Notes: a model not told the origin generated them from the letters alone. A DNA stretch of 32,000 nt from Pseudomonas sp. GCEP-101 (GCF_025133575.1 NZ_CP104011.1:3138965-3170964); one strand, 5' to 3'. Shown: positions 4,737-30,411, numbered from the stretch's first letter. Translations and numbers: made by a program.

Positions 4737-4765
4737 GGGCCGCTTTGCGGCCCTTTCTTTTTTTC
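4737..4765 (+). terminator. Rho-independent terminator after the RidA-like gene
   Basis: Stem gggccg/cggccc with loop ctttg, followed by tttcttttttt. Confidence 0.7.
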
Positions 4766-5108
4766 TCCCTTGCATGGTGACGCCGCGGGTTCGCGAGCAC
4801 CCTCGCTCCTACGAAGAGCAACGCGGATCTGTAGAGCGAGGCAGACGCCCAGCCCTTGCTCGCGAACCGCTCCCCTCCGATCCCGCCGCCCGAATGTATT
4901 GCTGTGTATCTGCCACTCCCTGCGCCGGTACACGCATACAAAAGCCTCCAGCCGCCGATACGCCCGCGATACATCGCCCAGGCGAAATAGCCCTACCCGA
5001 ACGACACGGCGCCTGGGCAGGGCAACCCCTCCAGCGCAGCGTCCCCAGGGATTCGCCCTTGCGGCATGACCCCGGCGCAGCCCGCGCCACAGCATCTGGA
5101 GAAGCACC

Positions 5109-5627: not shown

Positions 5628-5688
5628 GCCGAGCCGACCACCTCCCCGCGCCGCCGGCCGGGGAGGGCACTTCGCCAAGGAGACCGCC

Positions 5689-6534
5689 ATGAGCACCACC
5701 GCACCCCTACAGGGGGCAGGCCTGGGCCTGCGCCGCGCCCTGCTGCCCGACCTGCTGACCCTGGACGACCGCGCCGTGGACTTCCTCGAAGTCGCCCCGG
5801 ACAACTGGATCGGCGTGGGCGGCACCTACGGCGAAGGGTTGGCCCGCCTGGCCGAGCGCTTCCCGCTGTCCTGCCATGGCCTGTCGCTGTCCCTCGGTGG
5901 CCCGGAGCCGCTGGACCACGTGTTCCTCGGCCGCATCCGCGAGTTCCTCGACCAGCACCAGGTGCCGCTGTTCAGCGAACACCTGAGCTACTGCTCCGAC
6001 GAAGGCCACCTCTACGACCTGATTCCCATGCCCTTCACCGACGAGGCCGTGCGCCACATCGCCGGGCGCATCCGCGAAGTGCAGGACGCCCTCGGCCGCC
6101 GTATCGCGGTGGAGAACATCTCCTACTACGCCGCGCCCTACCAGGCGCTGAGCGAAATCGACTTCCTCCGCGCCGTGCTCGGCGAGGCCGACTGCGACCT
6201 GCTGCTGGACGTCAACAACCTCTACGTCAATGCCCACAACCACGGCTACGACGCCGCCGATTTCCTGGCCCGCGTGCCGGCCGAGCGCGTCGTCTGCCTG
6301 CATGTCGCCGGGCACTACGACGAAGCGCCGGACCTGAAGATCGATACCCATGGCGCCGAGGTGAAGGACGACGTCTGGAGCCTGCTGGCCAGCGCCTACC
6401 AGTACCTGGGCACGGTGCCGACCCTGCTCGAGCGTGATTTCAACCTGCCGCCGCTGGCCGAACTGCTCGGCGAAGTGAACACCATCCGCCGCCTGCAAGC
6501 CGCCGCGCGCCGGCCGGAGGTGCGCCATGGCTGA
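5689..6534 (+). CDS. DUF692 / MNIO-family (MbnB-like TIM-barrel) enzyme
   Basis: Hallmark DUF692 blocks are present: [69 protein letters not shown]. It lies immediately downstream of the Cys-repeat protein. Confidence 0.85.
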
Positions 6535-7300
6535 GACCCTGCGCGACCAGCAACTGCGCATGACCCGCTACATCCGTGACCCGCAGGCCAACGAGCCGCC
6601 GCCCGGCATCGAGGCGCGGCGCCTGGCGGTGTACCGGCAATTGTTCTTCGGCAACCTGCAGTCGCTACTCGCCGGCAACTTCCCGGTGCTGCACGCCAGC
6701 CTGGCGCGCGAGCACTGGCAGGCGCTGACCGAGGACTTCTACGCGGCCTTCCGCTGCCAGACGCCGCTGTTCACCGAGGTTGCCGGCGAGTTCGTCGAAT
6801 ATCTGGAGGGGCGCACCGATCAGCCCGGCTGGGTGGCGGAACTGGCGCACTACGAGTTCATCGAGACGGCGCTGCTGCTCAGCGACAACGCCGAGCCACC
6901 CCATGATCCGCACGGTGACCTGCTCGACGGCGTGCCGCTGCTTTCCAGCCTTGCCGTGCCGCTGGCCTACGCCTGGCCGGTCAGCCATATCGGCCCCGAG
7001 CACCTCCCGTCGCAGGCGCCGGCCGAGCCGACATTGCTGCTGGCGCGCCGGGATACCGACCTGAAGGTGTACTTCTCGCGTCTGGCACCGCTGGCCCATG
7101 CGCTGCTGGTGTCGCTGCAACAGTGGCAGCTCACCGGGCGCCAACACCTCACGGCGCTGGCGGAAATTGCCGGCGTCGAAGCGGCCGCCATCGAAGCGCA
7201 GGGCATCGCCCTGCTGCGCAGCCTGAAAGAACAGGGCGTGGTGCTCGGCACCCGCCCCAACTGCACCACCCCCCGTCGTCCCCTCTTGCACCGCCCCTGA
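6527..7300 (+). CDS. DUF2063-family partner protein of the DUF692 enzyme
   Basis: 8-nt overlap (ATGGCTGA) with the DUF692 gene. The N-terminal pattern is typical of DUF2063 (FRRYIRDP-like [25 protein letters not shown]). The DUF692+DUF2063 pairing is the conserved operon architecture. Confidence 0.75.
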
Positions 7301-7312
7301 AGGAGAAGCGCC

Positions 7313-7735
7313 ATGACCGACACCCTCGCAACCGTGATCTACACCGCCCACACCCACACCACCGGCGGCCGCGACGGCCGCGGCCAGACCGCCGACGGCG
7401 AGCTGGACCTGCCCCTGAGCCCGCCCGGTTCGGGCCGCCCCGGCACGAACCCCGAGCAGCTGTTCGCCATCGGCTGGTCCGCCTGCTTCATCGGCGCCCT
7501 GCGTCGCACCGGGCAGAAACTGAACCTGCGCCTGCCGGCCGACGTGGCGGTGAGCGCCGACGTGTCCCTGGGCAACACCGCCGACGGCGGCTTCGCCCTG
7601 GCCGCCCAACTCACCGTGCACCTGCCGGGGCTGGCCGCCGAGGACAAGGCGAAACTGGTGGAAGAAGCGCACCAGATCTGCCCGTACTCCAAAGCTACCC
7701 GCGGCAATATCGAGGTAGGGTTCGTCATTCCCTGA
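7313..7735 (+). CDS. ohr: Ohr/OsmC-family organic hydroperoxide reductase
   Basis: Strong Ohr pattern: TTGGRDG, GTNPEQLFAIGWSACF (first catalytic Cys) and ICPYSKATRGNIEV (second Cys). Begins 13 nt after the DUF2063 stop. Confidence 0.85.
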   Translation: MTDTLATVIYTAHTHTTGGRDGRGQTADGELDLPLSPPGSGRPGTNPEQLFAIGWSACFIGALRRTGQKLNLRLPADVAVSADVSLGNTADGGFALAAQLTVHLPGLAAEDKAKLVEEAHQICPYSKATRGNIEVGFVIP

Positions 7736-7757
7736 TCGATCCCTTCTCACCGCGCAG

Positions 7758-7791
7758 CCCGTGCACCTTCATCGGTGCGCGGGTTTTTTTT
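7758..7791 (+). terminator. Rho-independent terminator ending the EGKCG-MNIO-ohr operon
   Basis: 10-bp stem cccgtgcacc/ggtgcgcggg (one G-U pair), loop ttcatc, then T8. Confidence 0.8.
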
Positions 7792-7819
7792 GTGTCTCAT
7801 CGGCGCGCGAGGTGCTTCC

Positions 7820-7869
7820 CTGTAGGAGCGGGCCATGCCCGCGATCGCGCCCATGGGGCGCTCCTGCAG
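7820..7869. repeat. REP-like palindromic element (copy 1)
   Basis: ctgtaggagcg ... cgctcctgcag inverted termini. It shares an identical 24-mer tgtaggagcgggccatgcccgcga (7821..7844) with 8406..8429. Confidence 0.6.
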
Positions 7870-8069
7870 GTTGGCGCCGGTATTCCCGACCGCGTAGGCG
7901 CGGACTTTGTCCGCGATGCTTTTGCTTCGGGCTGGGAGTTTTTGCGCCGCCTCGGTTTGCGCGTAGGCTTCATGTTTCGCCCCCTCGGGCGAGTTACTTT
8001 TCCAAACGCCGAAAAATAACCAAAAGGCTTGCCCCGGACATCCGGTTTTTCGCTTGGGGCGAAAAATGC

Positions 8070-8178
8070 CCTCGTTGAACCGCAGTTTCAGGGGCCCGCC
8101 GCGAAGGGCCATCCCTGGCCCATCGCGGCTCTCGCGACATCCATGTCGCTCAACCCCTGAAACTCCGCTTCAACGAGG
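8070..8178. repeat. 109-bp structured element bounded by 25-bp imperfect inverted repeats
   Basis: The arms are cctcgttgaaccgcagtttcagggg (8070..8094) and cccctgaaactccgcttcaacgagg (8154..8178), complementary at 23/25 positions. An internal palindrome gcgacatccatgtcgc sits at 8134..8149. Confidence 0.45.
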
Positions 8179-8231
8179 CCTCCTGAACGGGGCATTCGGA
8201 GCATGCGGATGCTCTTCTGGACGTCTTGAGT

Positions 8232-8264
8232 AGCCAAAGCCAAAGCCAAAGCCAAAGCCAAAGC
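8232..8264. repeat. Hexanucleotide microsatellite (AGCCAA)x5.5
   Basis: Direct reading: agccaa repeated five times plus agc, in an intergenic position. Confidence 0.9.
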
Positions 8265-8275
8265 TAGGGCTGCAC

Positions 8276-8351
8276 GTAGGGCGAATAACCCGGAACGGGT
8301 TATCCGCCGATACCTCGACGGCGGATAACGCTGGCGCGTTATGCGCCCTAC
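8276..8351. repeat. Nested palindromic REP-like unit
   Basis: Outer inverted repeat gtagggcgaataac / gttatgcgccctac. Inner inverted repeat gttatccgcc / ggcggataac. Confidence 0.6.
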
Positions 8352-8404
8352 GATCGCTGCGGCGGTGTCCGGACTGGCATGAAACCCCGAGGGTAATTCG
8401 CACC

Positions 8405-8463
8405 TTGTAGGAGCGGGCCATGCCCGCGAACGGCGGACGAAGTCCGCGTTCAACCTCCTGCAC
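8405..8463. repeat. REP-like palindromic element (copy 2)
   Basis: Same 24-mer as copy 1 at 8406..8429. The matching ctcctgca arm is at 8455..8462. Confidence 0.6.
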
Positions 8464-8478
8464 CGACTTCCCGCAGAC

Positions 8479-8513
8479 AAACAAAAACGCCCTCTCCACA
8501 GGGAGAGGGCGTT
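8479..8513 (-). terminator. Rho-independent terminator after the DoxX gene
   Basis: 12-bp perfect stem aacgccctctcc/ggagagggcgtt, loop acag. On the minus strand it is followed by tttttgttt. Confidence 0.75.
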
Positions 8514-8542
8514 GCGGGTCTAGCAGACGAATGGCCAGCCGA

Positions 8543-9058
8543 TCAGGCGCTCCGCGAAGCCCCCTGGACTCGCCGCACCACTCCATCCAGGCTCAACGCC
8601 CCGGCCCCCTTGAGTGCCAGCGGCAGCAGCGCCACCAGGTAGATCAGCGGCAGCTTGTAGTTGCCAAAACCATGGTCGGTGATCGAGTAGCCCTGGGCCA
8701 GTTCCGCCAGGCTCGACCACTGTGCCGGCCAGTGCACCGCGGCAATCGCGACGAGGGTCACGACGATCAGCGAGGCCGAGGCGAAGCGGGTGGCCAGGCC
8801 GAGCAGGAGCAATACCGGCGCGATCAGTTCGGCCCACATCGACACCTGCCAGTCGAAGCCGGCGGAGAAGTGGTTGAAGGGGAAAGGGAAGTTGGCGTGG
8901 ATCTGTTCGAACCAGTTGTCACCGTGCCATTTCTCCAGGCCCGACTCGAAGAATTCCCAGGCCAGGAACAGCCGCAGCGGGATGTCCCAGCCCCAGGCGG
9001 CGAGGCGGTCGAGTTGGGCGAAAACGGTCTTGATCGGGTTCAGGGTCAGCAGGGTCAT
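8543..9058 (-). CDS. DoxX-family inner-membrane protein
   Basis: ATG at 9058 (MTLLTLNPIK) within the long shadow-extended ORF 8543..9730. 171 aa with four hydrophobic segments and DoxX-like RLFLAWEFFESGLEKW and LLLLGLATRFASASL blocks. Confidence 0.85.
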   Translation of the reverse strand: MTLLTLNPIKTVFAQLDRLAAWGWDIPLRLFLAWEFFESGLEKWHGDNWFEQIHANFPFPFNHFSAGFDWQVSMWAELIAPVLLLLGLATRFASASLIVVTLVAIAAVHWPAQWSSLAELAQGYSITDHGFGNYKLPLIYLVALLPLALKGAGALSLDGVVRRVQGASRSA

Positions 9059-9138
9059 GGCACACCTCGAAGGCGGAGTCGTGGGCAGGGGATCAGCGGC
9101 CGGGCGCAGGTCAGGCCCGGTCGTGGCAGGCATAGGAG

Positions 9139-9777
9139 TCAGGCGTTCGGCAGGGCGGGACGGGCGCCACGGCGCAGGCGCACCGCCAGCTTGGCGAGGA
9201 GCTTGAAGGCGATGGCGCTGAAGATCAGGCCGAAGCCCAGTGGGTACCAGGAGCCCAGCGGCAGGCGCTTGTAGAAGGACAGCAGGAACACCAGGGCGAT
9301 GACCCAGGTGCCGGTGCTGTGCAGGCGCTTCCAGGTGCGGGCGCCGAGCCGCTTCACCGCGTAGGGGAACGAGGTGAGGGTCAGCAGGATGATGAACAGG
9401 TAGCCGACCGAGCCGGGGATGTTCGCGGCGGCGCTGCGGCCGTGCCAGAAGGTCTCGGGGAAGAACTTTACGTAGAAGACGATCAGCACGGCGTGCACGG
9501 CGTGGGAGAAGGCAAAGGCCAGGCCGAGAAAGCGCCGCTCGCGCAGCAGGCCGCGGGTGAAGTCGCCCGGCAGCAGCGACGCCAGGGACGAGGCGAGAAA
9601 GGTGGCGAGGAACAGCGCGAAGGAGGTGCGGGCGGTGACGCGGATGGCGCTGCGCAGCGCTTCCACCCACTGCGGCTGGGACCACAGGGCCAGGACGGTG
9701 ACGATCAGCACCAGCAGCGACAGCAGGCAAAACAGGCGCCAGCCATGCAGGCGGGCGGGGTTGGCGGGACGGTTCAT
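9139..9777 (-). CDS. Polytopic membrane protein, tentatively ferric-reductase/MsrQ-like transmembrane domain
   Basis: ATG at 9777 (MNRPANPARLHGW). About six hydrophobic helices with conserved-looking His pairs (FAFSHAVHAV, RLHSTGTW). The family call is tentative. Confidence 0.6.
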   Translation of the reverse strand: MNRPANPARLHGWRLFCLLSLLVLIVTVLALWSQPQWVEALRSAIRVTARTSFALFLATFLASSLASLLPGDFTRGLLRERRFLGLAFAFSHAVHAVLIVFYVKFFPETFWHGRSAAANIPGSVGYLFIILLTLTSFPYAVKRLGARTWKRLHSTGTWVIALVFLLSFYKRLPLGSWYPLGFGLIFSAIAFKLLAKLAVRLRRGARPALPNA

Positions 9778-9901
9778 GGCGGGCTCCTTGGAGGAACGCG
9801 GCGGGCGGGGTGCCGCCGCTGTTCGTGGAGCCATCCTGGGGGCAGGGCTTATCCCGGATGTGTCCGGGGACAGGCGTCTTGTATCGCTCTGTACAAACCG
9901 C

Positions 9902-11212
9902 TCACGGCGCCGGGCGCAACTGCAGCTGCGCGCAGAGCCCGCCGCTGGCGCGGTTGGACAGGGTCAACGTGCCGCCCAGCGCCTGGCTCAGTTGCTGGAC
10001 GATGGCCAGGCCCAGGCCGGTGCCGCCGGTGCTGCGGTTGCGCGAACTTTCCACCCGGTAGAAAGGTTTTACCACTTCGGCGAGCTCGTCCTCGGGGATG
10101 CCCGGGCCGTCGTCCAACACACGCACATACACCGTACCCTGGGTGTCGCGCTCGACCTCCACCTGGGCGGAGCCACCGAACTTCAGGGCGTTGTCCACCA
10201 GGTTGGTGAGCACCCGGCGCAGGGCATGGGGGCGGGTTTCCAGCACCGCGTGGCTGCTGCCCAGCAGTTCCACGGCCTGGCCGCTGTCCTGGTAGTCCAG
10301 CACCAGGCTGTCGAGGAAGGCGTCGAGGTTGACCTTCACCGCCGCCTCGCTGGCGCCGTCCATGCTGCGCGCGTAGGCGACGCCCTCGCGGACCAGGTGC
10401 TGCATTTCCTCCAGGTCGCTCCACAGGCGCTCGCGCTCGGGGGAGTCGTCCATCTGCTCGACGCGCAGCTTCATCCGTGTGATGGGCGTCTGCAGGTCGT
10501 GGGAGATGGCAGCGAGCAGTTGCATGCGCTCCTTGAGGTAGCTGCCGATGCGGCCCTGCAGTGCGTTGAAGGCGCGGGCGGCGTAGGCGACTTCGCTGGG
10601 GCCGCGCTCGTCCAGTTCCGGCGCCGGGGCGTCGGGGTCGAGGTCGTCCACCGCCTGCGCCAGCTGGGTGAGCGGGCGGATGGCCAGGCGCACGGCGATC
10701 CAGGTGCAGAACAGCAACAGCGCCAGCTGGACCAGCAGCACCCACGGCAGCCATTGCGCCACAGGCACGCCCTTGGGCGTCACGTCGATGGTCAGCGGGC
10801 TGCCGTCCTTGAGCGTCAGGTGCACCTGGAAGTGCGGGATGGCGCCGGGGATGTTCTCGAAGCGCAGCGGGTAGCGCGGCCCGACGACGTCGGCAATGGA
10901 CTGGGCGGCCATTGGCGCCTGCGCCATGTTCATCGGCTCGCCCGGCTGGCCTTCGCTGAGCAGGTAGCGGTAGTTGGGGCGCTGCACCATCGGCAGCCAC
11001 GCCTGGCGCTCGTCCCGGGGCAGGCGGTCGAGCAGGGCGACGGCGGTGCTGACGTCGGTCTCCAGGTTGCCCAGCATCATGTTGCGCGCGCTCTGGTAGC
11101 GCTCGTAGAACTGCGAGCAGAACGACAGGCTGTAGGCGAACACCAGCCCGGCGAGGAAGATCAGCGCCAGGCGCGCGGCCAGCGTGCGTGGCCAGTGCAG
11201 GAGGGATTTCAT
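9902..11212 (-). CDS. EnvZ-type sensor histidine kinase (2 TM, HAMP, HisKA, HATPase_c)
   Basis: H-box LLAAISHDLQTPIT, N-box LTNLVDNALKF, G-boxes DDGPGIP and GGTGLGLAIV. The ATGA start overlaps the stop of the upstream regulator gene. Confidence 0.9.
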   Translation of the reverse strand: MKSLLHWPRTLAARLALIFLAGLVFAYSLSFCSQFYERYQSARNMMLGNLETDVSTAVALLDRLPRDERQAWLPMVQRPNYRYLLSEGQPGEPMNMAQAPMAAQSIADVVGPRYPLRFENIPGAIPHFQVHLTLKDGSPLTIDVTPKGVPVAQWLPWVLLVQLALLLFCTWIAVRLAIRPLTQLAQAVDDLDPDAPAPELDERGPSEVAYAARAFNALQGRIGSYLKERMQLLAAISHDLQTPITRMKLRVEQMDDSPERERLWSDLEEMQHLVREGVAYARSMDGASEAAVKVNLDAFLDSLVLDYQDSGQAVELLGSSHAVLETRPHALRRVLTNLVDNALKFGGSAQVEVERDTQGTVYVRVLDDGPGIPEDELAEVVKPFYRVESSRNRSTGGTGLGLAIVQQLSQALGGTLTLSNRASGGLCAQLQLRPAP

Positions 11213-13798: not shown

Positions 13799-14167
<369 letters not shown>

Positions 14168-14176
14168 GGATCGAGC

Positions 14177-14524
14177 GTGTCCAGGTTGGTCGTCCGATTT
14201 ACCCACACCGCAGAACAGAGCATCCAGGACCAGGTTCATCACCTGGTTCCGTTCCTGGGGCAGCAGAATGCCCTGGATTCGCTCCTTGAACTGATCGTCG
14301 AGATCGAAGAGAAGCTGCCGCGAGCGCCGGCAGGATATCCTGTCAGCGAGCAAGCGAGCCTGCTGGGCGTATTGCACTTCCGCGAGTTCAACACGGGGCC
14401 GTACCGCGTGTTCTATGAGGTGCATGAACACCTGAGCGAAATCGCCGTCATTCTGGTGCTGCGGCAGAAGCAGAGTGTGCAGCAGCAACTGATTCGTTAC
14501 TGCCTTGTCGGGCCTTTTGAATAG
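14177..14524 (+). CDS. ParE/RelE-superfamily toxin
   Basis: GTG start 6 nt after gagga and 9 nt after the antitoxin stop. 115 aa. The [24 protein letters not shown] pattern is typical of ParE/RelE. Confidence 0.75.
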
Positions 14525-16431: not shown

Positions 16432-16480
16432 ACCAAAAACGCAAAAGCCCCCGGCAACTTACGCTGCTGGGGGCTTTTGC
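16432..16480 (-). terminator. Ancestral tRNA-Gly terminator left at the attL side
   Basis: Perfect 12-bp stem gcaaaagccccc/gggggcttttgc, followed on the minus strand by gtttttgg. It lies just downstream (minus sense) of the tRNA 3' fragment. Confidence 0.65.
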
Positions 16481-16485
16481 TTGGA

Positions 16486-16517
16486 TTCTGGAGCGGGCGA
16501 AGGGAATCGAACCCTCG
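16486..16517. repeat. attL: 32-bp direct repeat containing a duplicate of the tRNA-Gly 3' end
   Basis: ttctggagcgggcgaagggaatcgaaccctcg is identical to 30335..30366. Identity breaks on both sides. Confidence 0.85.
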
Positions 16518-16646: not shown

Positions 16647-17717
16647 CTATTTGAGTACCAAAATGGGGTGCGCCCGTTCCCTAGGGTGGCCAGGGAAGCT
16701 TGAAAAGCAAATATTGCTATTGGCTGCAGCGCTAGGTCTGGTTGGGCCGTATACGCTTTCCATACTGAAGAAAACAGATTTTTTATCGTTCTCCGCGAAC
16801 CCACTAAATCCATTCTGAATAAGATTGGTAACTGTGGCCTCTTCTCGTTCTGTTCCTAAATAGCATAAGTCTTGGCACATTTGAGCGAGTTGAAGAGCTG
16901 TAGGTCTTTTCTCGGCCTCGTAGGCTAAGCAACTATCTACAATTCTTTGCAGTTCTTCGGACAGCGGTTTGAATTGGGGGTTGGAGGTCATAAATGCCGG
17001 CCACGGTTTTCGATCCTTGGTCTTAACATTAACCGCCGCATCTAGGTATAAACCAAAAGGGTGTTCGCCAGTTAATAGAAGGAACATCATTGCGCCAAGG
17101 GACCAAATGTCTACTGGTTTTTCAGTCCGATCACCTGCCTTTCTGAACATCATTTCAGGAGCCATAAATGGAAGGGCTCCTTTAATTGTTCCTGATGTTG
17201 AGTTGGTGAAGTCCCCCTTTCTATGTGCGTCCTCGAAAACTTCTTCAGTTAAGGTGGCGATACCAAAATCTGTGATCTTTAATTCGTATAAATTCACGCC
17301 GTGGGAGGTGATGATATTGCTTGGTTTTAAGTCTCTATGAATTACACCTGCTCTATGCGATGCCAGTATGCCTTTAGCTAGGTGATGAAGAACGTGTGCT
17401 GCTAAGTGGGGGTCAAGGAATCCAAATTTCTTTAACTTCGCGTCAAGGGTTTCCCCTTCAACAAACTCTTCAATCAAGAAGAATTGCTCGTCTTCTTCGA
17501 TGTAGTCTAATGTCTTTGCAACATTGTGATTGTTGATTTTTGCCGCAATAATAGCGCTGTTCTTGAATCGTTTTTCGGCTTGCCCGGCTTGTGGAGTTTT
17601 TAGCGCGACGTGCATTCCTAGTAGCTTATCGTTTGCGAGATATACATCTTGCATGCCGCCACTGCCGATATGTTTTATTACTTGGTATCTATTAGATATC
17701 AGAAGGTCTTTTTTCAT
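16647..17717 (-). CDS. Hanks-type Ser/Thr protein kinase with a C-terminal cold-shock/OB-like tail
   Basis: Motifs GSGGMQDVY (G-loop), VALK, HRDLKPSN, DFG and FMAPE. SD ggaggt is upstream. The start overlaps the stop of the upstream kinase gene (TAATG). AT-rich. Confidence 0.9.
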   Translation of the reverse strand: MKKDLLISNRYQVIKHIGSGGMQDVYLANDKLLGMHVALKTPQAGQAEKRFKNSAIIAAKINNHNVAKTLDYIEEDEQFFLIEEFVEGETLDAKLKKFGFLDPHLAAHVLHHLAKGILASHRAGVIHRDLKPSNIITSHGVNLYELKITDFGIATLTEEVFEDAHRKGDFTNSTSGTIKGALPFMAPEMMFRKAGDRTEKPVDIWSLGAMMFLLLTGEHPFGLYLDAAVNVKTKDRKPWPAFMTSNPQFKPLSEELQRIVDSCLAYEAEKRPTALQLAQMCQDLCYLGTEREEATVTNLIQNGFSGFAENDKKSVFFSMESVYGPTRPSAAANSNICFSSFPGHPRERAHPILVLK

Positions 17718-18772
17718 TATGGCATTACCTCCGGATTAGACACGTCGAAAGTTATAAATCTTCTGCTAGATCCTGTGCCGAATGTCAGGACGCAGCAGTG
17801 AGGCAGAGCTTCACCATTTGCGATATTTCTATTGTTGGCGGTGACTTGTCCGGATTGGGATTTGACTATGAATTGATAGCCGTCATAGTTAATACTTATT
17901 TCCCCGAGTGATGCGATTTTTACGTTGACGTTAGTCGAGTCTTTATTCAGTTCGTACGTGGCTCCGTTTGCAACTAACAGTGCTCGATGCTTATTGTGAA
18001 GCAAGTGACGATTTAGAGTTTTCTCTATTTCGCTAATGTGGGGGCGCTTTTGTGTGTCATGGCTGAGGCAATCTTCAAGTAAACCTATAATGTCGGAAGG
18101 TATTCCTTTGAGATATTCATTCAGCTCTCCCGGTTCTATTTTTCCCGGCGGGTAAGCTGTGAGCGTTGCCGGGATTCGCTTATCCTTTTTCAGCGCAAGC
18201 GCGGTTATTGCGAAGGCGTATACATCAATCGAGTTATCGAAGCTGACATCACTCTTTTTCCACAATTCCGGAGCCATAAAAATAGGGGTGCCAATGGCGT
18301 TAACTGTAGCTGCGTCCTCGCCATGCCTCCGGGAAAGTCCGAAGTCGAGAATCTTCAGATTTCCACTGGAGTCAATTTTTATGTTGGAAGGTTTGATGTC
18401 TCGGTGGATAATTCCCGAAGCATGTATGGCTGAGAGTCCGCAAGCTATTTGCCAAAGTGTTTTCAAATATTCATTGTCTAAGCTTTGGCAGCCGGGTGTG
18501 AGAGTGTCTCCATCGATAAATTCTAGAATTAGTGCCTGGTTTGTGTTTCCGTCTTCTTTTATCTCAATTATGTCGTAAAGCTGAACAACGTGCCTTGAGC
18601 GAATTTGAAGAAGGGCTTTTTGCTCATCTAGCAGTCGACGGGCCTCTTCGCCCTTTTTTAGGACTTTGAGGATGACTTCTCTGTTGAGGTGGGTGTCGGT
18701 GCATTTATATATTTCACCCATTCCGCCGGCAGTCAAAGGGGCGGATAGTTCATATCTACTTGGAAGAATCAT
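17717..18772 (-). CDS. Hanks-type Ser/Thr protein kinase with a C-terminal FHA-like tail
   Basis: Motifs GGMGEIYK, VILK, HRDIKPSN, DFG and FMAPE. ATG 18772, preceded by aagga at 8 nt, is preferred over GTG 18778. Overlaps the PP2C 3' end by 17 nt. Confidence 0.9.
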   Translation of the reverse strand: MILPSRYELSAPLTAGGMGEIYKCTDTHLNREVILKVLKKGEEARRLLDEQKALLQIRSRHVVQLYDIIEIKEDGNTNQALILEFIDGDTLTPGCQSLDNEYLKTLWQIACGLSAIHASGIIHRDIKPSNIKIDSSGNLKILDFGLSRRHGEDAATVNAIGTPIFMAPELWKKSDVSFDNSIDVYAFAITALALKKDKRIPATLTAYPPGKIEPGELNEYLKGIPSDIIGLLEDCLSHDTQKRPHISEIEKTLNRHLLHNKHRALLVANGATYELNKDSTNVNVKIASLGEISINYDGYQFIVKSQSGQVTANNRNIANGEALPHCCVLTFGTGSSRRFITFDVSNPEVMP

Positions 18773-19880
18773 CAGCACTATCCTTATGCTCTATATCCAT
18801 TTCAATTACGATTTGAAGATCTTCATCTTTTGGTGCTTCAACTTTTGGAAGCTTTGTCTTCTTTTTTGCCTTGCTTTTTCTGTTCTTGTTTGGGCTAGGT
18901 CTTTGGTCGTTGTCAGGCGGAGTTTTAGCTTCCGGTTCGTTACCAATTTCGACTGGCAATGCTGGCGTAGAGCTAGGCGCCGGTGGTTGTCTTTCTATAG
19001 GACGGAGTTCATTTGGTGAATGATTTCTCACCTCATCTTTGATCCAAGCAATGTGAAGTTCACTGAATGGGTCAAGGATTTGAATGGAGGATTCATCTTT
19101 TGTGATGAGTTCTTTTGCATCTTGTAGAGAAACGACTGCGCCAGAAGCATTGTCAGGAGCACCTAGCCAGCGAGCGAGAGTCCCCAGTCGCTGAGCAGCT
19201 TGATAGATATCCGCAGAGTTTATGAAGATTGAAGAAAACATGCTCTCTTCAGGGAAATGAATGCCATCAGTCGTCAAGAGGAAGCGGTTATAGGTGTTAT
19301 TAATGAAGCTAATGTGAGGCCGTATTCCTGGGCCCATTCCCATGAACTGAAGTAGCTCTCGGCCATGACCACCTACTGCTTCTGCTAAAGAATCATCTGT
19401 CGTCAGTCTGCGTAGTTGTCTAGGTGACTCAATCGTCTCGGCATAAATTCGGCTATCTCCGACATTAACCGAAAATGTTCCATGTTTTTCTGTTATTAGT
19501 AATGCTGAAAGAGTTGCGCCGCCGGCTCCACCGGAAAAATCGTAAACACAGTCGTTAGAGTCTATGGTCGACTGCCGCAACCTTTCCATTTCTGGGCGGT
19601 GCCGGTATTTTATTAGCGAATTGAAGAAGGAGGCTATTGCTCTAGTAGCACACTCTGCTCCATCCTTCATTCCACCCATTCCATCCGAAATGGCAATCGC
19701 TAAAAAGCCACCGTCATTTTTTTCGTTCCCGCTAACTTTTAAGCAGGCAACGCGGTCTTGGTTCTGTGATCTCTTTAAACCAATGTCCGTAAATAGTGCG
19801 ATGTTTTTTCTTGCTGTCAGTCCACTGCTCTTGTCCGGGACATCTCTAGACAGCCACTTAATTAATGTACTATTCAACAT
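18756..19880 (-). CDS. PP2C-family Ser/Thr phosphatase with a Lys-rich disordered tail
   Basis: Motifs RSQNQDR, SDGMGGMKDG, VGDSRIY and LLTTDG (metal-binding Asp residues). The C-terminal 90 aa are low complexity (KNRKSKAKKKTKLPK). No SD precedes its ATG. Confidence 0.9.
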   Translation of the reverse strand: MLNSTLIKWLSRDVPDKSSGLTARKNIALFTDIGLKRSQNQDRVACLKVSGNEKNDGGFLAIAISDGMGGMKDGAECATRAIASFFNSLIKYRHRPEMERLRQSTIDSNDCVYDFSGGAGGATLSALLITEKHGTFSVNVGDSRIYAETIESPRQLRRLTTDDSLAEAVGGHGRELLQFMGMGPGIRPHISFINNTYNRFLLTTDGIHFPEESMFSSIFINSADIYQAAQRLGTLARWLGAPDNASGAVVSLQDAKELITKDESSIQILDPFSELHIAWIKDEVRNHSPNELRPIERQPPAPSSTPALPVEIGNEPEAKTPPDNDQRPSPNKNRKSKAKKKTKLPKVEAPKDEDLQIVIEMDIEHKDSADDSSK

Positions 19881-19881
19881 A

Positions 19882-19977
19882 TCAATGGCTTCGATGAAAG
19901 TGGGCGAAATTTAGATGGTCGTGCTGAGTTAAGCAGAGGGGCAAAGGGTTTTTAAGTGATTCGTGGTAGCTAGGCAT
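19882..19977 (-). CDS. Candidate 31-aa His-rich upstream ORF translationally coupled to the PP2C gene
   Basis: Not in the supplied track. aaggag lies 9 nt before ATG 19977. Translation: MPSYHESLKNPLPLCLTQHDHLNFAHFHRSH. The TGA stop ends 1 nt before the PP2C ATG. Confidence 0.35.
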   Translation of the reverse strand: MPSYHESLKNPLPLCLTQHDHLNFAHFHRSH

Positions 19978-20046
19978 TTAATTACACTCCTTGTGCTTAA
20001 TTCCCTTTTTTGACGTACCAACGCAGTGCCACTGTCCGTGTTAGCT

Positions 20047-20316
20047 CTATCCCGCGCCGGGTACGGCTAATTTGGCATCTGCTTCCTCGTAGCCAGGGGC
20101 TATCTGACCTCGAGCCGGATCTACGTCACCTTTCAGAAGCCATAGCTCGTATTGAGGAAACACTCGTAACAGCTCTTCCAAGTCTTCTATGCGGGCTTTG
20201 ACCTTGCGGTTAGTCGCGACGGTCTGCCAGCGCTGTCGCTCTGTAATAGCGGTGGTTTCGGCCAGTTTTGTCGCACCGATAAACCTTACAAGGGTTCTAA
20301 CCCGCTCTTCTATCAT
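20047..20316 (-). CDS. Pf repressor C-like immunity protein (Pf4r-like)
   Basis: 89-aa protein divergent from the excisionase-like gene across an AT-rich operator region. This is the position and size of Pf4r in Pf4. The call rests on synteny more than on motifs. Confidence 0.65.
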   Translation of the reverse strand: MIEERVRTLVRFIGATKLAETTAITERQRWQTVATNRKVKARIEDLEELLRVFPQYELWLLKGDVDPARGQIAPGYEEADAKLAVPGAG

Positions 20317-20421
20317 TCCAAAACGCTCTAAGAGATAATAAATAATTTATTGATGAATTATTTATCAGTGCTAGGATTGGCCTGTGATAAATAATTTATT
20401 AGAGCTTCTCGTCCTAATGGA
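20317..20421. promoter_or_regulatory. Divergent immunity/excision control region with three ATAAATAATT operator-like sites
   Basis: 14-bp direct repeat ataaataatttatt at 20338..20351 and 20387..20400. Perfect 12-bp inverted repeat aattatttatca (20356..20367) / tgataaataatt (20385..20396). Confidence 0.6.
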
Positions 20422-20658
20422 ATGAATAGTGACGGAACGAGCATGGAACTGGAAGAGCTGTCTCCCAATGCCCTGGTAGGGCCGCAACAGGACGTAGAGC
20501 CCATCGAGAAGTGGGCGGAACGCAACGGCGTCACCTTCGGCACGGCCCGCGCTTGGGTGTACCGGGGCGTCCTGCCCTCGGTGAAGCTCGGCAAGCTTCG
20601 CATGGTGAATAGCGCGCTGCTTCGTACGTGGCTGCTGGAACAGGAGTGGACGGCATGA
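20422..20658 (+). CDS. Excisionase / MerR-like HTH DNA-binding protein (XisF-like)
   Basis: The pattern IEKWAERNGVTFGTARAWVYRGVLPSVKLGKLRMV matches the excisionase-type winged HTH. Divergent from the repressor, as in Pf4. The start could be 20422 or 20443. Confidence 0.7.
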   Translation: MNSDGTSMELEELSPNALVGPQQDVEPIEKWAERNGVTFGTARAWVYRGVLPSVKLGKLRMVNSALLRTWLLEQEWTA

Positions 20659-21305
20659 AGGCTGAGATTCGTGCCGAGTTTCTGCGGACGCTGACTCTTT
20701 TTTGCTGCTCTGATTTGCAGCTCGGCACTTGGGCGCGGGATCACAACGCCAGTTGCTATGGCCGTCTGCTGGGATTTATCGACGCTCTCGAAATGGCTGG
20801 GGAGATCGGATACGACGAGTTCTCCCGCATGGAAGCCCTCGTTTTTAACGTGATCGGATACAGCGGCCGTCCATTCCCCAGCGCTCTCAATGCTGGTCCT
20901 GTGATGCCGTCTTGGGAGGCGTTCAAACGCTGCCAGAAAGCAGGGGAGGCGATAGCTGATGATTCCCTCGAACCGCCCGCACCAACCGCACGCCCCGGAC
21001 TGCGACTGCTCTGTCTGTTGGTCCCGTCGCGAACTGGCGAAGCCCGTAGTCTTCCAGTCCACACCCTGCACCGAGTGCCGCCCTACGCGAGTCTTCACGG
21101 TCGTTACCACGATGGCGCTGGTCGCGGGAGTGTGGCGCTCGATCCACTCGACGTACCGGGTGGAACCGGGTTTTACCTGCGCGAAACACATGCCCGCGCT
21201 CCGTCCGCCGAAGTACTGGCACGTTGTGTACGACAGCGGCAAACCGACTCCCTTCGTGCCGATCCGCGAGCCCTTCGAGTTGGAGGCCTGAGCCATGCAC
21301 ACTGA
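20655..21305 (+). CDS. Pf hypothetical protein; 3' boundary uncertain
   Basis: ATGA overlap with the xis stop. The first 100 codons read like a real helical protein (MKAEIRAEFLRTLTLF...). After about 20960 the alternative frame has much better GC3, so the true end is unclear. Confidence 0.35.
   Translation: MKAEIRAEFLRTLTLFCCSDLQLGTWARDHNASCYGRLLGFIDALEMAGEIGYDEFSRMEALVFNVIGYSGRPFPSALNAGPVMPSWEAFKRCQKAGEAIADDSLEPPAPTARPGLRLLCLLVPSRTGEARSLPVHTLHRVPPYASLHGRYHDGAGRGSVALDPLDVPGGTGFYLRETHARAPSAEVLARCVRQRQTDSLRADPRALRVGGLSHAH
20959..21291 (+). CDS. Pf hypothetical Cys-rich protein (possible zinc ribbon: CDCSVC ... CTEC)
   Basis: Strong GC third-position bias by eye (roughly 85%). It runs in the +1 frame relative to 20655. 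Confidence 0.55.
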   Translation: MIPSNRPHQPHAPDCDCSVCWSRRELAKPVVFQSTPCTECRPTRVFTVVTTMALVAGVWRSIHSTYRVEPGFTCAKHMPALRPPKYWHVVYDSGKPTPFVPIREPFELEA

Positions 21306-26064: not shown

Positions 26065-27360
26065 ATGACCAAGCCACAGCATCAAGTTCGCGTCACCCTC
26101 AAACCCGGTGGCGAAATTTACGAGTCGCCCGAAGGGCGTTTGTTCTTCGACGACAAGCTGGCCAAGTTCACCGATCTATCCGGCGTGCGCCTGCTTCGTT
26201 GCGGGGTGGACACGGTTCGGCAGCTCTACAACGGTCTGATCCGCCCCGAGATAATGGCGATCTTTGATGAGCCGGAAGACATTGTGGAGTTCGCCGGTTA
26301 CCAGTGGGCCAAGGGCAGGGTAGGGCGCGATTCCGGTTACCAGTACCGGCTACAGAACGCAGATATGGGCCTGATCCTGCTGATCAAGAATCACAACGTG
26401 AAGCTCGAAAACATCGGCCCGCACCTCAAGATTGAAGTGTCTCCGCACGCCCTGGATGGTGCCGATCCTTCGATCCTGCAAGGCGTACTGGATGACCTCG
26501 CCGCTGGTGTGCTTGCCGCCTGCGAAGTGAATCAGTGCGCCGTACACCTCGCACTCGATGTGCAGGGCTGGACGCCTTCCAGCGACCTCGTAGAGCGTAT
26601 GCGTTGCCGTTCGCACCGGGTGCGCCAGATCACCGGTATCGACCGTATCGAGTTCGACGGTAACGCCTCGGTATACGGGCGTGGTGAAACCTTCATGTTC
26701 GGCTCGGCCAACGGCCTTCAGCTCTGCATCTACAACAAGACGCTCCAGGCCCGGAGCACGGACAAGCTCGACTACTGGGAAAACGTTTGGGCATCCCTCA
26801 ACGGCGATCCTTTCGGCGATGGCGAGCCCGCCTATAACCCGCTGGAAACGGTGTGGCGCATCGAGTTTCGCTTCCACCACTCGGTAGTACAGCAGTTCTC
26901 CGAAGGCTCCCGGATGGCCTCTGGTGAGGTAATCGGCTGCCGTACCTACTCGGGTCTTTGCCCGCATCTGCAAGGACTGTGGGAATACGCTTGCGACAGC
27001 TTCCGCCTGTTGTTGGATAACCCCAAGTGGTTCGATCCGTTCTGGTCGCTGATCACCCTGGATACCAAGGTGCAGGTAGAGGCCGATCCGCTCATTGAGC
27101 GCACGGAATACCGCCGCTACTACAAGACCGCTCAGGGCTTTTCCGGCAAGAACTGCGAGATGTTCCTGGGACAGTTCGCCAGCCTTATTGCACGGGAGCG
27201 CGTACCACCAAAAAAAGCCCTTGAGGTCGGGAGAACGCTTCCCTTCTGGCATGTGATTGAAGATCACTACACCGCCAAGGGCTACAGCACTCGCGACCTC
27301 GAACGTCACATCATTGGGCTCATCAACGACCGGTACTTGAAGCGGGGGTACGCGATCTAA
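26065..27360 (+). CDS. Replication initiation protein (gene II/X family, PA0727-like)
   Basis: ggag lies 8 nt before ATG 26065 (the track starts at GTG 26056). 431 aa. Synteny places it between zot and int. The family call comes from position and size, plus RIEFRFHH-type blocks. Confidence 0.8.
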   Translation: MTKPQHQVRVTLKPGGEIYESPEGRLFFDDKLAKFTDLSGVRLLRCGVDTVRQLYNGLIRPEIMAIFDEPEDIVEFAGYQWAKGRVGRDSGYQYRLQNADMGLILLIKNHNVKLENIGPHLKIEVSPHALDGADPSILQGVLDDLAAGVLAACEVNQCAVHLALDVQGWTPSSDLVERMRCRSHRVRQITGIDRIEFDGNASVYGRGETFMFGSANGLQLCIYNKTLQARSTDKLDYWENVWASLNGDPFGDGEPAYNPLETVWRIEFRFHHSVVQQFSEGSRMASGEVIGCRTYSGLCPHLQGLWEYACDSFRLLLDNPKWFDPFWSLITLDTKVQVEADPLIERTEYRRYYKTAQGFSGKNCEMFLGQFASLIARERVPPKKALEVGRTLPFWHVIEDHYTAKGYSTRDLERHIIGLINDRYLKRGYAI

Positions 27361-28342
27361 TGAGCATCACCAAGCTCCCCGATGGCCGTTGGTTTGTTGA
27401 TGTCGAGCCGATAAAGGGAAAGCGTTTCCGGAAGCGGTTCAAGACCAAAATGGAAGCGCAGCAGTTCGAGGCCAACGCGCGCCAGAAGTGCGCCGAGAAT
27501 CCGAGTTGGACGATTAAGCCCAAGGATCGCCGCAAGCTCTCCGAGCTAGTCGAACTTTGGTATGAGCTTCACGGCCAGACCCTTGCCAATGGCAAGCGCT
27601 GTGTGGCGATTCTGCGGCTGATAGCGAAGGACCTGGGTGACCCTATAGCGGCAACTCTGGAGCCGGCCAAGTGGCCCGTGTGCGCTCCTTGCAAGTCGCT
27701 AAAGGCATGTCGGGCAAGTACGCCAACAACCGCCTTGGCTACCTCAAGTCGATGTACAACGAGCTACGACAGCTGGGGACCATCGACTACGAGAATCCCG
27801 TTGGACGCATGCGTCCGTTGAAGCTGCAGGAGAAGCCGCTGTCATACCTGACCAAGCATCAGGTTTCAGAGCTGCTGGCCGCGCTCGATGCCCGCACTAC
27901 GTCGCCGCATCCGAAGATGGTCGCTCGCATCTGCCTCGCAACAGGTGCTCGATGGGGAGAAGCTCAGGCTCTGACACCGGAGCGGTTGAAAGGCAATACG
28001 GTCATCTTCGCCAACACCAAGTCTAAGCGTGTTCGCTCGGTGCCAATCTCCGAAGCCTTGGCCAAAGAGATTCGTCAGCATTGGCAGGCCCATGGTCCGT
28101 TCACCAACTGCCTCGGCGTGTTTCGCATCCTGCTGCTGTCCACGTCGATCAAGCTCCCGAGAGGGCAGGCCAGCCACGTGCTACGCCATACGTTCGCTAG
28201 TCACTTCATCATGAACGGCGGGCACATCGTGACGTTGCAGCACGTTCTGGGGCATGCATCACTTTCGATGACTATGCGGTATGCTCATCTATCGGAAGAG
28301 CATTTAAAAGATGCAGTATTGTTGAATCCACTCCTGCGTTGA
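27360..28342 (+). pseudogene. Tyrosine recombinase (Pf integrase) interrupted by a -1 frame change near 27665..27675
   Basis: The N-terminal SAM-like part occupies frame 27360..27821. The catalytic part occupies frame 27671..28342, with R (ATGARWGEA), HVLRHTFAS, and LGHASLSMTMRYAHL with the catalytic Y. Joining across gccaagtggcccgtg restores a continuous integrase. Confidence 0.8.
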
Positions 28343-28388: not shown

Positions 28389-30218
28389 ATGGAGCGAATG
28401 GATATGAGTGCTGAGTTTGCAAGTCTTTCTGTAATCATTCGTGCGGCTTCGCCATTAATTAAAGATATTTATAATGGTGCAAAGGGGGAGGTTAAAAAAT
28501 GCCTCGAGAAATGGGGGGCGAGCTCGTTTCCCTCAAATCTGTCAGACAGTCTAGAGTATCTTGATTCGGTCAGAACTATTTGGAGTCCTGAGAAGAACGT
28601 TTCGTTGTCTGGGTTTTATTACCCTAGTAAGTTTGATATCAATGGTTGTGCGACAGAGGTGTGTAGAGTAACTGATCTTGGTAAGGGGAGTGTGGTAGTT
28701 CAAGGAATTGTTGGGCAGGGAAAGTCAGTATTTCTCAGGTATCTCGCGATCCAGGAGATATTAAGCTCTGATCGGCCAAGGATGCCTGTTTTTTTGGAGC
28801 TGAGAAGGCTGAGTAAGTCGTTTGGGTTGCTTGACGGGCTGAAGGCAGTACTATCCAGTTATGATTTAAGTGCGACGGATGAGGTTTTTAAGTATTTGGC
28901 TGAATCGGGGAAGATTGTTATTTTGCTCGATGGGTTTGATGAGCTTGATTCTGAGGTGGTTAAGGATACAGCTATAGTAATAGAAGGCTTGGTAAGGGCG
29001 TATCCTGGTTTGCAAGTAGTGGCTACGTCTAGGCCGCGAAACGAAATCCAAAAGATGAGCTGCTTTCGGGTGATGGATATATTGCCTTTGGAGAGTTCTG
29101 ACTATGCTGGATTTTTGGGTAAACTTGGGGTTGATGTTGTAAAGGCTCATTCGATAGTTGAGGCTATAGAGTCCAGTCCGAGTAAGGTCTCCGAGTTGAT
29201 TAGTACGCCGTTAATGCTGACTCTGGTGGTTTTTGTATACCAGTCTGAAAATCACATCCCAGCAGAGCTTCCGGAGTTTTTTGAGCGCCTCTTCTATACA
29301 GTATTCACTCGGCACGATAAATTGAAGCCGATATTTGATCGTCAGCACTATACGAAGTTGTCAGAGCGGAAGCTCCAAAGCTTATTTGAGGCGTTCTGCT
29401 TCATGAGTATGCAGTTAGGCAATGGTAGGTCTCTGAGCTCTGCTCAATTCTCGAAAGCATTTGATTTGGCGCAAGAGTATACGGATGGATCAGATTGTTA
29501 TGAGGTTGATTTTCGAAACGACATAACAAAGGTTTCTTGTTTGATGCTTGAGGAAGGGTTCGGCGATGTGACTTTTCTTCATAAAAGTATTGCTGAATAT
29601 CATGCTTCGGCGTTTGTTAAGAATTCGGATGATGTATTTGCAAAGCGATTTTACGAGCACGCGGCGAAAAACTGGTCTATGTGGGAGGCGGCTCTTTCTT
29701 TTTTAAAAGTTATAGATTCCTATCGATTCGCTAAGTATTTTGCTGTGGAGCAACTGATTGGTGCTATAGCGTTGGCAAGGTTGTTAGACTCTTGTGTGGA
29801 TGCGGTTAGCTTTGTTCGGTCTCTTCCAGAGTCGATGGGAGGGTTGTCGGCTAATTATGAGCAGACTTTTGATCCAGTCTATTTTTCCTATGAAAGCGTG
29901 GGTGCATGGACTGCGCCTGATAACTATTATGATGAGGATTTGGTGGATGTTATAACGGATGTTATTGCTGAGATAGTTCCAGACTCTTTGTCGGTGCATG
30001 AGATTTCAGAGTTGCGTAATTCTGGCGTTCGAGTGCTGGGGGTTGATGAAGACCTTATTGAGATTGGTCTTATAGATATTTTTAAAGTGTGGGGGTTTGA
30101 AAGGGTTAAAGAGAGTGTTGCTCAGCATTTGGCTGATCTTATTGTTCGGCTGGATCAAGCAAAAGTTCTTGCCGAGAAATTAGACAAGCGTGTGTCAATC
30201 TTTGATAAGAGACTGTAG
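28389..30218 (+). CDS. NACHT/STAND NTPase (bacterial NLR-like), right-end prophage cargo
   Basis: Walker A GIVGQGKS (aa 106-113), Walker B IVILLDGFDEL, then VVATSRP. A helical C-terminal region of about 260 aa follows. AT-rich. The likely true start is ATG 28404 (ggag 8 nt upstream). Confidence 0.8.
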   Translation: MERMDMSAEFASLSVIIRAASPLIKDIYNGAKGEVKKCLEKWGASSFPSNLSDSLEYLDSVRTIWSPEKNVSLSGFYYPSKFDINGCATEVCRVTDLGKGSVVVQGIVGQGKSVFLRYLAIQEILSSDRPRMPVFLELRRLSKSFGLLDGLKAVLSSYDLSATDEVFKYLAESGKIVILLDGFDELDSEVVKDTAIVIEGLVRAYPGLQVVATSRPRNEIQKMSCFRVMDILPLESSDYAGFLGKLGVDVVKAHSIVEAIESSPSKVSELISTPLMLTLVVFVYQSENHIPAELPEFFERLFYTVFTRHDKLKPIFDRQHYTKLSERKLQSLFEAFCFMSMQLGNGRSLSSAQFSKAFDLAQEYTDGSDCYEVDFRNDITKVSCLMLEEGFGDVTFLHKSIAEYHASAFVKNSDDVFAKRFYEHAAKNWSMWEAALSFLKVIDSYRFAKYFAVEQLIGAIALARLLDSCVDAVSFVRSLPESMGGLSANYEQTFDPVYFSYESVGAWTAPDNYYDEDLVDVITDVIAEIVPDSLSVHEISELRNSGVRVLGVDEDLIEIGLIDIFKVWGFERVKESVAQHLADLIVRLDQAKVLAEKLDKRVSIFDKRL

Positions 30219-30334: not shown

Positions 30335-30366
30335 TTCTGGAGCGGGCGAAGGGAATCGAACCCTCG
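30335..30366. repeat. attR: 32-bp direct repeat overlapping the tRNA-Gly 3' end
   Basis: Identical to 16486..16517. Confidence 0.85.
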
Positions 30367-30411
30367 TCATGAGCTTGGGAAGCTCAGGTAATGCCATTAT
30401 ACGACGCCCGC
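30338..30411 (-). tRNA. tRNA-Gly (anticodon CCC)
   Basis: The reverse complement reads GCGGGCGTCGTATAATGGCATTACCTGAGCTTCCCAAGCTCATGACGAGGGTTCGATTCCCTTCGCCCGCTCCA. It has a 7-bp acceptor stem, anticodon stem TGAGC/GCTCA with loop TTCCCAA, a GGTTCGATTCC T-arm and an encoded CCA. Confidence 0.95.

Follow-up and report, generated by a model that had tools for sequence, protein, structure and literature searches.

A probable KKP operon as accessory cargo of a Pf-like filamentous prophage in Pseudomonas sp. GCEP-101

Kinase-kinase-phosphatase (KKP) modules have been described as regulators of Pf phage production and as toxin-antitoxin systems of phage defence, and they form a published family of more than 1200 members (Guo et al. 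2024; PMC11341870). A KKP module comprises a PP2C phosphatase gene followed by two kinase genes, each of 900-1300 bp, and is recognised by a PP2C domain (PF13672) and two Pkinase domains (PF00069) encoded by adjacent, co-oriented genes; PfkB carries an FHA tail, PfkA carries a cold-shock domain (CSD) tail bearing a GFI/A motif, and GGM, HRD and DFG are the motifs that were mutated by Guo et al. (PMC11341870). In the prototype, the module of prophage Pf6 of strain MPAO1, low kinase activity phosphorylates MvaU and helps to silence Pf; phage proteins known to inhibit or destabilise PfpC include T4 Gp59, which acts on an E. coli module, and RepG4 of Pf4, which acts on the Pf6 module (PMC11341870, PMC12328805). 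Here we analyse a block of three minus-strand genes in a 32,000-nucleotide stretch of the Pseudomonas sp. GCEP-101 genome (NZ_CP104011.1:3138965-3170964; hereafter, the window). On the evidence of how the genes are arranged, of their domain folds and catalytic residues, of one-to-one homology, of the position in a prophage and of purifying selection, we conclude that the block is very probably an intact pfpC-pfkB-pfkA (KKP) operon, carried as accessory cargo by a Pf-like filamentous prophage of 13.85 kb with tRNA-Gly(CCC) as its insertion site.

Gene architecture and homology to the Pf6 module

The block and the region upstream of it comprise the following features:

18756..19880, minus strand: pfpC-like gene, PP2C phosphatase of 374 aa (1125 bp); Pfam PP2C_2 (E 1.4e-9) and phrog_17277 (E 5e-64); Lys/Pro-rich C-terminal tail
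17717..18772, minus strand: pfkB-like gene, Ser/Thr kinase of 351 aa from its ATG (1056 bp); Pfam Pkinase (E 1.5e-38); predicted C-terminal FHA-like domain
16647..17717, minus strand: pfkA-like gene, Ser/Thr kinase of 356 aa (1071 bp); Pfam Pkinase (E 4.2e-44); predicted C-terminal cold-shock domain with GFA motif
19881..20046, minus strand: intergenic region of 166 nt between the repressor gene and pfpC, read from the sequence; presumed operon promoter or read-through region

An earlier reading made from the sequence alone (hereafter, the sequence-only reading) had placed three genes at exactly these positions, and the open reading frames (ORFs) are as it described them. The junctions that it reported can likewise be read directly in the sequence: the PP2C stop and the start of kinase B overlap by 17 nt (ATGATTCTTCCAAGTAG), and the stop of kinase B and the start of kinase A have one nucleotide in common (TAATG). 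An alternative upstream GTG at 18778 would lengthen the pfkB-like product to 353 aa. Profile searches for Pkinase and PP2C domains agree with the gene assignments of that reading, all three Pfam matches exceeding their gathering scores. The AT-richness that it had estimated by eye (40-45% GC, against about 65% in the flanks) is borne out by measurement: GC content is 44.7% for the operon vs. 60.9% for the prophage core and, in 500-nt windows, 42-48% over 16.5-20.5 kb vs. 63-70% in the flanks. The ORFs, the junctions, the low GC content and the Pfam matches could not have arisen by chance. A scan of the operon for consensus promoters and terminators gave nothing above the shuffled background; the KKP promoter fragment of MPAO1 also spans the repressor gene, pf6r (PMC11341870).

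The sequence-only reading had also pointed to a Pf-borne module of two kinases and a PP2C phosphatase (PfkA, PfkB and PfpC), which is the module of Guo et al. 2024 (PMC11341870), and had taken the block for a member or divergent relative of that class. The MPAO1 reference genes are in no deposited phage genome. A primer from the supplement of PMC11341870 led to a viral contig encoding PfpC and Pf6r (L004), and a protein search with that PfpC led to a second contig (L005) that holds the whole MPAO1 operon; a second primer-derived pattern had no match in the viral contigs. The contig so reached agrees exactly with the published primer junctions, and its PfkA has T34 and S37 at phosphosites mapped in PMC11341870 and, as given in the supplement, GFI in its CSD tail.

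Alignment of the window proteins with these references shows one-to-one, end-to-end homology: 49% identity over 350 aa for PfkA (E 8e-116), 42% identity over 354 aa for PfkB (E 5e-86) and 37% identity over 282 aa for PfpC (E 2e-52). The two window kinases are just 29% identical to each other, and the pairing of one with PfkA and of the other with PfkB is therefore unambiguous. With the same gene order and a Pf6r-like neighbouring gene, these results uphold the relationship that the sequence-only reading proposed. The locus has the co-oriented triplet in KKP order, gene lengths within 900-1300 bp, the catalytic motifs and one-to-one homology to the prototype proteins. Since every bioinformatic feature by which KKP is recognised is found, we conclude that the locus is a fresh member of the published family, and not a new class of system.

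The likeness to the Pf6 module (Guo et al. 2024, PMC11341870; Gu et al. 2025, PMC12328805) extends from the three genes, their order and their overlapping junctions to the proteins (a PP2C phosphatase, a kinase with an FHA-like tail and a kinase with a cold-shock tail, with GGM, HRD and DFG), to low GC content (41.9% in the prototype vs. 44.7% in the window), and to the slot between an attachment site and the repressor gene, in the orientation of the repressor. The differences are, however, considerable: amino-acid identity is only 37-49%, the window PfkA falls in the other deep clade of a rough neighbour-joining tree, the CSD motif is GFA in the window and GFI in the prototype, the attachment site is tRNA-Gly(CCC) in the window and tRNA-Met in the prototype, and the window host is a Pseudomonas other than P. 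aeruginosa.

Catalytic residues and C-terminal domains

The catalytic motifs of both kinases and of the phosphatase are present. PfkA has GSGGMQ, K40, HRDLKPSN, DFG and APE, and PfkB has AGGMG, K36, HRDIKPSN, DFG and APE; the VA(I/L)K lysine motif and a GGM-type G-loop are found in both. In PfpC, D42, D66, D142, D205 and D243 align with all five metal-binding Asp residues of the cyanobacterial PP2C tPphA. The sequence-only reading had described the kinase motifs and the PP2C residues as kept, and this holds; it had overlooked that the alphaC Glu of PfkA is replaced by Ser54 (in the context RFKNSA), PfkB retaining its own as Glu50.

The alphaC glutamate normally pairs with the catalytic lysine. 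Comparison of 16 PfkA sequences (that of the window and others drawn from loci L001, L005, L010-L022 and L091-L093) shows the alphaC Ser, as RFxxSA, in 15, including the functional PfkA of MPAO1; the remaining sequence, L022, gave no match in the motif search. The prevalence of the Ser among these sequences indicates that the substitution is a trait of the family and not a defect of the window copy. PMC11341870 makes no mention of a salt bridge or of a pseudokinase, and the alphaC Ser is not discussed there.

For the C-terminal tails we turned to structure prediction, because Pfam profiles are uninformative for both. Pfam searches with the isolated tails, at E up to 10, returned no CSD or FHA match for the window proteins; of the prototype tails, that of PfkA matches CSD at E 0.0011 only, and that of PfkB has no FHA match. 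The tails were modelled by AlphaFold2 with alignments of about 110 homologues each, and the models were matched to the PDB by Foldseek. The PfkA tail (last 77 aa) is modelled as a five-stranded barrel whose pLDDT (predicted local distance difference test) is 90.4. Its top 36 PDB matches are all cold-shock or S1-like oligonucleotide/oligosaccharide-binding (OB) folds, mostly cold-shock proteins, with a Foldseek probability of 1.00 and target-normalised TM-scores of at most 0.79; they include Bc-Csp, CspA, CspB, Unr, YB-1 and a few S1-like OB-folds (RNase II). The PfkA motif SGFAEND aligns with the GFI of the MPAO1 PfkA, the window having GFA, the variant shown to be necessary for defence in the KKP of Shewanella. 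We conclude that the PfkA tail is, as modelled, a cold-shock domain such as defines PfkA in KKP.

The PfkB tail (last 99 aa) is modelled with a pLDDT of 88.8, and its best PDB matches are FHA domains, namely those of Ki67, Rad53 (FHA1), Pml1/SNIP1, YscD and CEP170, with probabilities of 0.85-0.99, TM-scores of 0.46-0.59 and weak E-values of 0.05-0.7. The tail is collinear in alignment with that of the MPAO1 PfkB. The model supports, but does not prove, an FHA-like fold, and we count it as the counterpart of the FHA tail by which PfkB is recognised in KKP.

The Pf-like prophage and the relatives of the module

The element that carries the block has the following features outside the operon:

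16486..16517, no strand: attL, a 32-nt copy of the tRNA-Gly(CCC) 3' end; exact direct repeat with 30335-30366
20047..20316, minus strand: Pf repressor gene (Pf6r/Pf4r-like, 89 aa), co-oriented with the KKP block; phrog_147 transcriptional regulator (E 1.5e-17)
20336..20401, no strand: three AT-rich 13-15-nt motif copies (ATAAATAATTTAT-like), inverted repeats I1-I3, between the divergent repressor and xis genes
20422..20658, plus strand: XisF-like excisionase/antirepressor gene; phrog_1864 (E 1e-32); product 87% identical to its counterpart in the P. aeruginosa element L001
20959..27360, plus strand: Pf core genes for PA0718 (PflM)-like, PA0719-like, single-stranded DNA (ssDNA)-binding, PA0722-like, CoaB, CoaA-like, DUF2523, Zot and replication initiator proteins, from Pfam, PHROG and tblastn
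27360..28342, plus strand: tyrosine integrase gene in two frames, one nucleotide being deleted near 27668; matches to Pfam Int_N are shared between two ORFs, as model positions 1-49 and 51-100
28389..30218, plus strand: NACHT NTPase gene, 609 aa, AT-rich right-end cargo (GC 43.5%); Pfam NACHT (E 5.9e-10) and phrog_32986 (E 5e-54)
30335..30411, minus strand: attR and tRNA-Gly(CCC); repeat copy at 30335-30366, tRNA at 30338-30411 (minus strand) by ARAGORN and Rfam

Because the 32-nt repeats delimit the element, the KKP block lies just inside attL, from which it is separated by 130 nt, within a prophage and beside mobile-element genes. Its position between attL and the repressor gene, co-oriented with the latter, is that given by the sequence-only reading. 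From the left, the order is KKP block, repressor, operator-like repeats, divergent xis, Pf core, integrase and NACHT gene. The window repressor is 40% identical to the 89-aa Pf6r protein encoded upstream of the MPAO1 KKP, and the AT-rich repeats at 20336-20401 probably serve as operators in the Pf immunity switch. The XisF-like protein also has a weak match to Pfam HTH_17, below the gathering cut-off (20.8 bits vs. 27), and a weak match to the Cox-like excisionase phrog_575.

The Pf core is identified by matches to Pfam Phage_Coat_B, DUF2523 and Zot, to a PHROG for the ssDNA-binding protein (E 1.4e-63) and to phrog_1159 (E 2.5e-219), and its homologues were also found by tblastn with the proteins of the Pf1 record. 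Against P. aeruginosa Pf phages, the core shows approximately 78% nucleotide identity across approximately 25% of the query, which indicates a Pf-like inovirus of a species other than P. aeruginosa. The structural, assembly and replication genes are all intact. The core set, the repressor/XisF switch, the tyrosine integrase and the tRNA insertion are those of a Pf-type (Primolicivirus-like) inovirus, with PA0717 and the frameshifted integrase as the exceptions. The missing integrase base is seen by alignment with a second copy of the prophage, on contig L002, for which a 328-aa integrase is called (GCCGGC-CAAG in the window vs. GCCGGCAAAAG); either the gene is truly a pseudogene or the assembly is wrong at this base. 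The position of PA0717 (RepG) in Pf4 and Pf6 is occupied by an unrelated ORF at 20655-20960 (plus strand), next to which stands the PA0718 (PflM) homologue at 20959-21291. A 225-aa ORF at 20628..21305 was considered as RepG and rejected: its PHROG matches are in the C-terminal half only, and it overlaps, out of frame, the better-supported PA0718 homologue.

The NACHT gene, between the integrase gene and attR, has a strong positive GC skew, and PADLOC gives for it a weak match to PDC-S60 alone. At each of its ends the prophage has AT-rich cargo of a defence type: the left end has KKP, and the right end a NACHT NTPase. On the host side, approximately 2 kb beyond attL, are genes for a Phd/YefM-like antitoxin and a ParE-like toxin (13817-14524, plus strand), in place of which the gene caller put two genes on the opposite strand in a related strain. 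Farther out, an Rfam TwoAYGGAY RNA motif lies at 8061-8187 (minus strand; 54.3 bits vs. a gathering score of 43).

The window PfkA matches WP_259753258.1 (Pseudomonas sp. GCEP-101) with 100% identity. Searching with it gave 1890 proteins at E of 1e-20 or below; the best 120 have 62-100% identity and come from many Proteobacteria. PfkA and PfkB are each 100% identical to proteins of Pseudomonas sp. NY15435, and the prophage copy on contig L002, in which the integrase is intact, encodes all three KKP proteins with 100% identity to those of the window. P. fluorescens BRIP34879 is both among the PfkA matches and in the catalogue of PMC11341870, which also has a P. chlororaphis strain, and P. chlororaphis homologues are among the PfkA matches; these shared entries indicate that the clade of the window module is already within the published KKP set. 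In the phage collection, megablast with the KKP block gave only a 46-nt match within 16470-16515, which overlaps attL, and no deposited phage with a close copy.

Closest to the window module is a KKP variant from P. aeruginosa (CP151543.1; L001, approximately 2568-11074; WP_341860489.1 cluster), with 83% identity for PfkA, 78% for PfkB and 68% for PfpC; P0121, a member of that cluster, is on 62 contigs. The variant shares with the window the GFA motif, an identical 32-nt att core flanking the element, a 96%-identical integrase and the neighbouring Pf repressor, xis and rep genes. Unlike the window prophage with its full core, it lacks all virion genes and its integrase remnant is uncalled; its far-end cargo is a ParE-type toxin-antitoxin pair, vs. 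the NACHT gene in the window. Between the two loci, the proportion of non-synonymous differences is 0.10-0.18 and synonymous sites are saturated (at least 0.75), so that a numerical ratio of non-synonymous to synonymous rates (dN/dS) is not computable. Low non-synonymous change against saturated synonymous change indicates purifying selection on all three genes.

Gene neighbourhoods were surveyed by scanning contigs with generic kinase peptides ([FY]MAPEMM and LKITDFGI), which recovered mostly unrelated kinases and 13 true KKP loci (L010-L022); the survey is small, as only these 13 loci are true relatives. The order PP2C, PfkB, PfkA is found in 9 of these 13 species-representative loci, the other 4 being incomplete or lacking one gene, and also in two E. 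coli prophages and MPAO1; among the 13 loci, conservation is highest in PfkA and lowest in PfpC. In E. coli genomes, megablast with the KKP of a Klebsiella phage gave no match, and a distant-mode search with the same query gave two E. coli KKP types. The enterobacterial modules (E. coli CP132061 and CP010235, Klebsiella phage Kp4865-2, and prpZ-prkY-prkX of S. Typhi on SPI-10) resemble the window module in being PP2C-kinase-kinase cargo of temperate elements, and two of their PfkA proteins, one from the P4-like E. coli module and one from the Klebsiella phage, are with 61-65% identity closer to the window PfkA than is that of Pf6. They differ in their carriers, which are tailed-phage or satellite genomes in another host clade, whereas the window carrier is an inovirus. 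Defence of E. coli against T4 and T-odd phages has been demonstrated for related modules, in strains other than those compared here.

In a rough neighbour-joining tree, 16 PfkA sequences fall into two deep groups. One comprises the window, the P. aeruginosa variant, P. fluorescens, the Klebsiella P2-like phage, the E. coli P4-like satellite and others; the second comprises the Pf6 KKP, L018, an E. coli P2-borne module, Methylobacter and Synechococcus. If a proper phylogeny agrees, Pf phages seem to have captured KKP at least twice. The locus L018 (NZ_JAUYNT010000024.1, approximately 4180-11035), from a metagenome-assembled genome of Pseudomonas sp., is a Pf-like prophage (Zot, Rep and Int) with a Pf6-clade PfkA, a truncated PfkB and no PfpC, and looks like a degenerate KKP that has lost its antitoxin. 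Its module stands beside Pf core genes, and att and repressor were not located there.

Alternative explanations and proposed mechanism

The most credible alternative, which is compatible with the module being KKP, is that KKP and the NACHT gene are kept as host defence, in a domesticated island within a decaying, non-excising Pf prophage, and have no role in Pf lysogeny. Such an island would account for an integrase with a frameshift that the same prophage lacks in another strain, for the P. aeruginosa variant, which retains KKP, repressor, xis, rep and an integrase remnant and has lost every structural gene, and for a prophage in which a RepG homologue is not detectable. On the other side, the structural, assembly and replication genes of the window prophage are all intact, the frameshift involves just one base and could have come from the assembly, a near-identical prophage (L002) has an intact integrase, and the defence and lysogeny-control roles of the prototype are not mutually exclusive; we consider the alternative unlikely. 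Decay of the KKP cassette itself to a non-functional remnant is far less likely still: the degenerate module of L018 shows that such remnants exist, but the window has three full-length ORFs with every catalytic motif, identical proteins are found in NY15435 (PfkA and PfkB) and in L002 (all three), and non-synonymous change is well below synonymous change.

Two further alternatives concern the identity of the genes. Pkinase and PP2C domains are generic, and an ordinary host pair of eukaryote-like Ser/Thr kinase and phosphatase, in the style of PpkA/PppA or Stk1/Stp1, could in principle stand beside a prophage by chance. What defines such host pairs is a chromosomal place in the core genome, a kinase with a membrane or sensor domain, and neighbouring genes of a dedicated pathway. 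The window module is not of this kind: it lies inside the att repeats of a prophage, with a GC content approximately 20 points under that of the host flanks; the Pfam results show no transmembrane or sensor domain, and the tails are instead the cold-shock and FHA-like tails specific to KKP; and its closest relatives come from unrelated bacteria, where they sit in P2-like, P4-like and Pf prophages. Of all the explanations considered, we regard this as the least probable. Another kinase-based defence, either a PD-T4-6-like single kinase or the mad6 kinase of MADS, is suggested by PADLOC, in which each of the two kinases has strong matches to the models for PD-T4-6 and mad6, with E as low as 1e-55. 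PD-T4-6 is a stand-alone, single-gene Ser/Thr kinase system, and defence of its type is presumed to act by phosphorylation-driven growth arrest. What the window module shares with PD-T4-6 and with other single-kinase systems is a homologous Hanks kinase domain, to which the PADLOC matches are confined; unlike PD-T4-6, it has two paired kinases, a PP2C antitoxin and cold-shock and FHA-like tails. PADLOC 2.0 is older than KKP and has no model for it, PfpC has no PADLOC match, and the three-gene order, the tails and the one-to-one homology fit KKP. We consider an assignment to PD-T4-6 or MADS very improbable.

The identification of the block as a KKP operon that functions as the prototype does must also be set against several observations that weigh the other way. 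Phosphosites T34, S37 and T271 of the MPAO1 PfkA correspond to K31, G34 and E269 in the window PfkA and are not conserved, and by tblastn the window prophage has no detectable homologue of RepG/PA0717, the only known Pf-encoded trigger; the caution of the sequence-only reading with regard to targets and trigger was therefore well placed. The alphaC Glu is missing from PfkA, yet the prototype has the same Ser and is functional. For the PfkB tail, the weak Foldseek E-values and the lack of a Pfam FHA match in both the window and the reference PfkB make for weaker evidence of the predicted fold. Should the integrase frameshift prove real, excision of the prophage may have been lost, and a part in controlling Pf production would be moot. 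The host mvaT and mvaU genes are outside the window; and toxicity, defence, substrates, trigger and MvaU control at this locus we infer from the characterised modules.

The mechanism that we propose for the KKP operon is accordingly drawn by homology to those modules (PMC11341870, PMC12328805). PfkA and PfkB would act jointly as a promiscuous Ser/Thr kinase pair, the unchecked activity of which would arrest growth, and PfpC, by continually undoing the phosphorylation, would serve as antitoxin. Upon infection, a phage protein that binds PfpC, and inhibits or destabilises it, would raise kinase activity, so that the infected cell would stop dividing and phage yield would be limited. At a low, non-toxic level of kinase activity, a silencer of the MvaT/MvaU type would probably be phosphorylated and the Pf prophage kept quiet.

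Taken together, the tree, the alphaC substitution and the missing RepG admit a joint reading that we offer tentatively and consider rather doubtful: KKP modules of two deep clades would have been captured separately by Pf phages, each into the slot between att and repressor; PfkA may be an incomplete kinase that needs PfkB for its activation; and, without RepG, the trigger in cis would be another Pf protein, or there would be none. Reliance of PfkA on PfkB, if true, would give a structural reason for the presence of two kinases.

The locus opens no new class of system, and its value is comparative. It provides a second, divergent Pf-borne KKP lineage to set beside the single Pf6 prototype, and the contrast between the two, in clade, att site, host species and RepG, could help to tell what is conserved in KKP function from what is peculiar to MPAO1. 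The kinase pair, the two tails (cold-shock and FHA-like) and the Ser that replaces Glu in PfkA are candidates for what is conserved.

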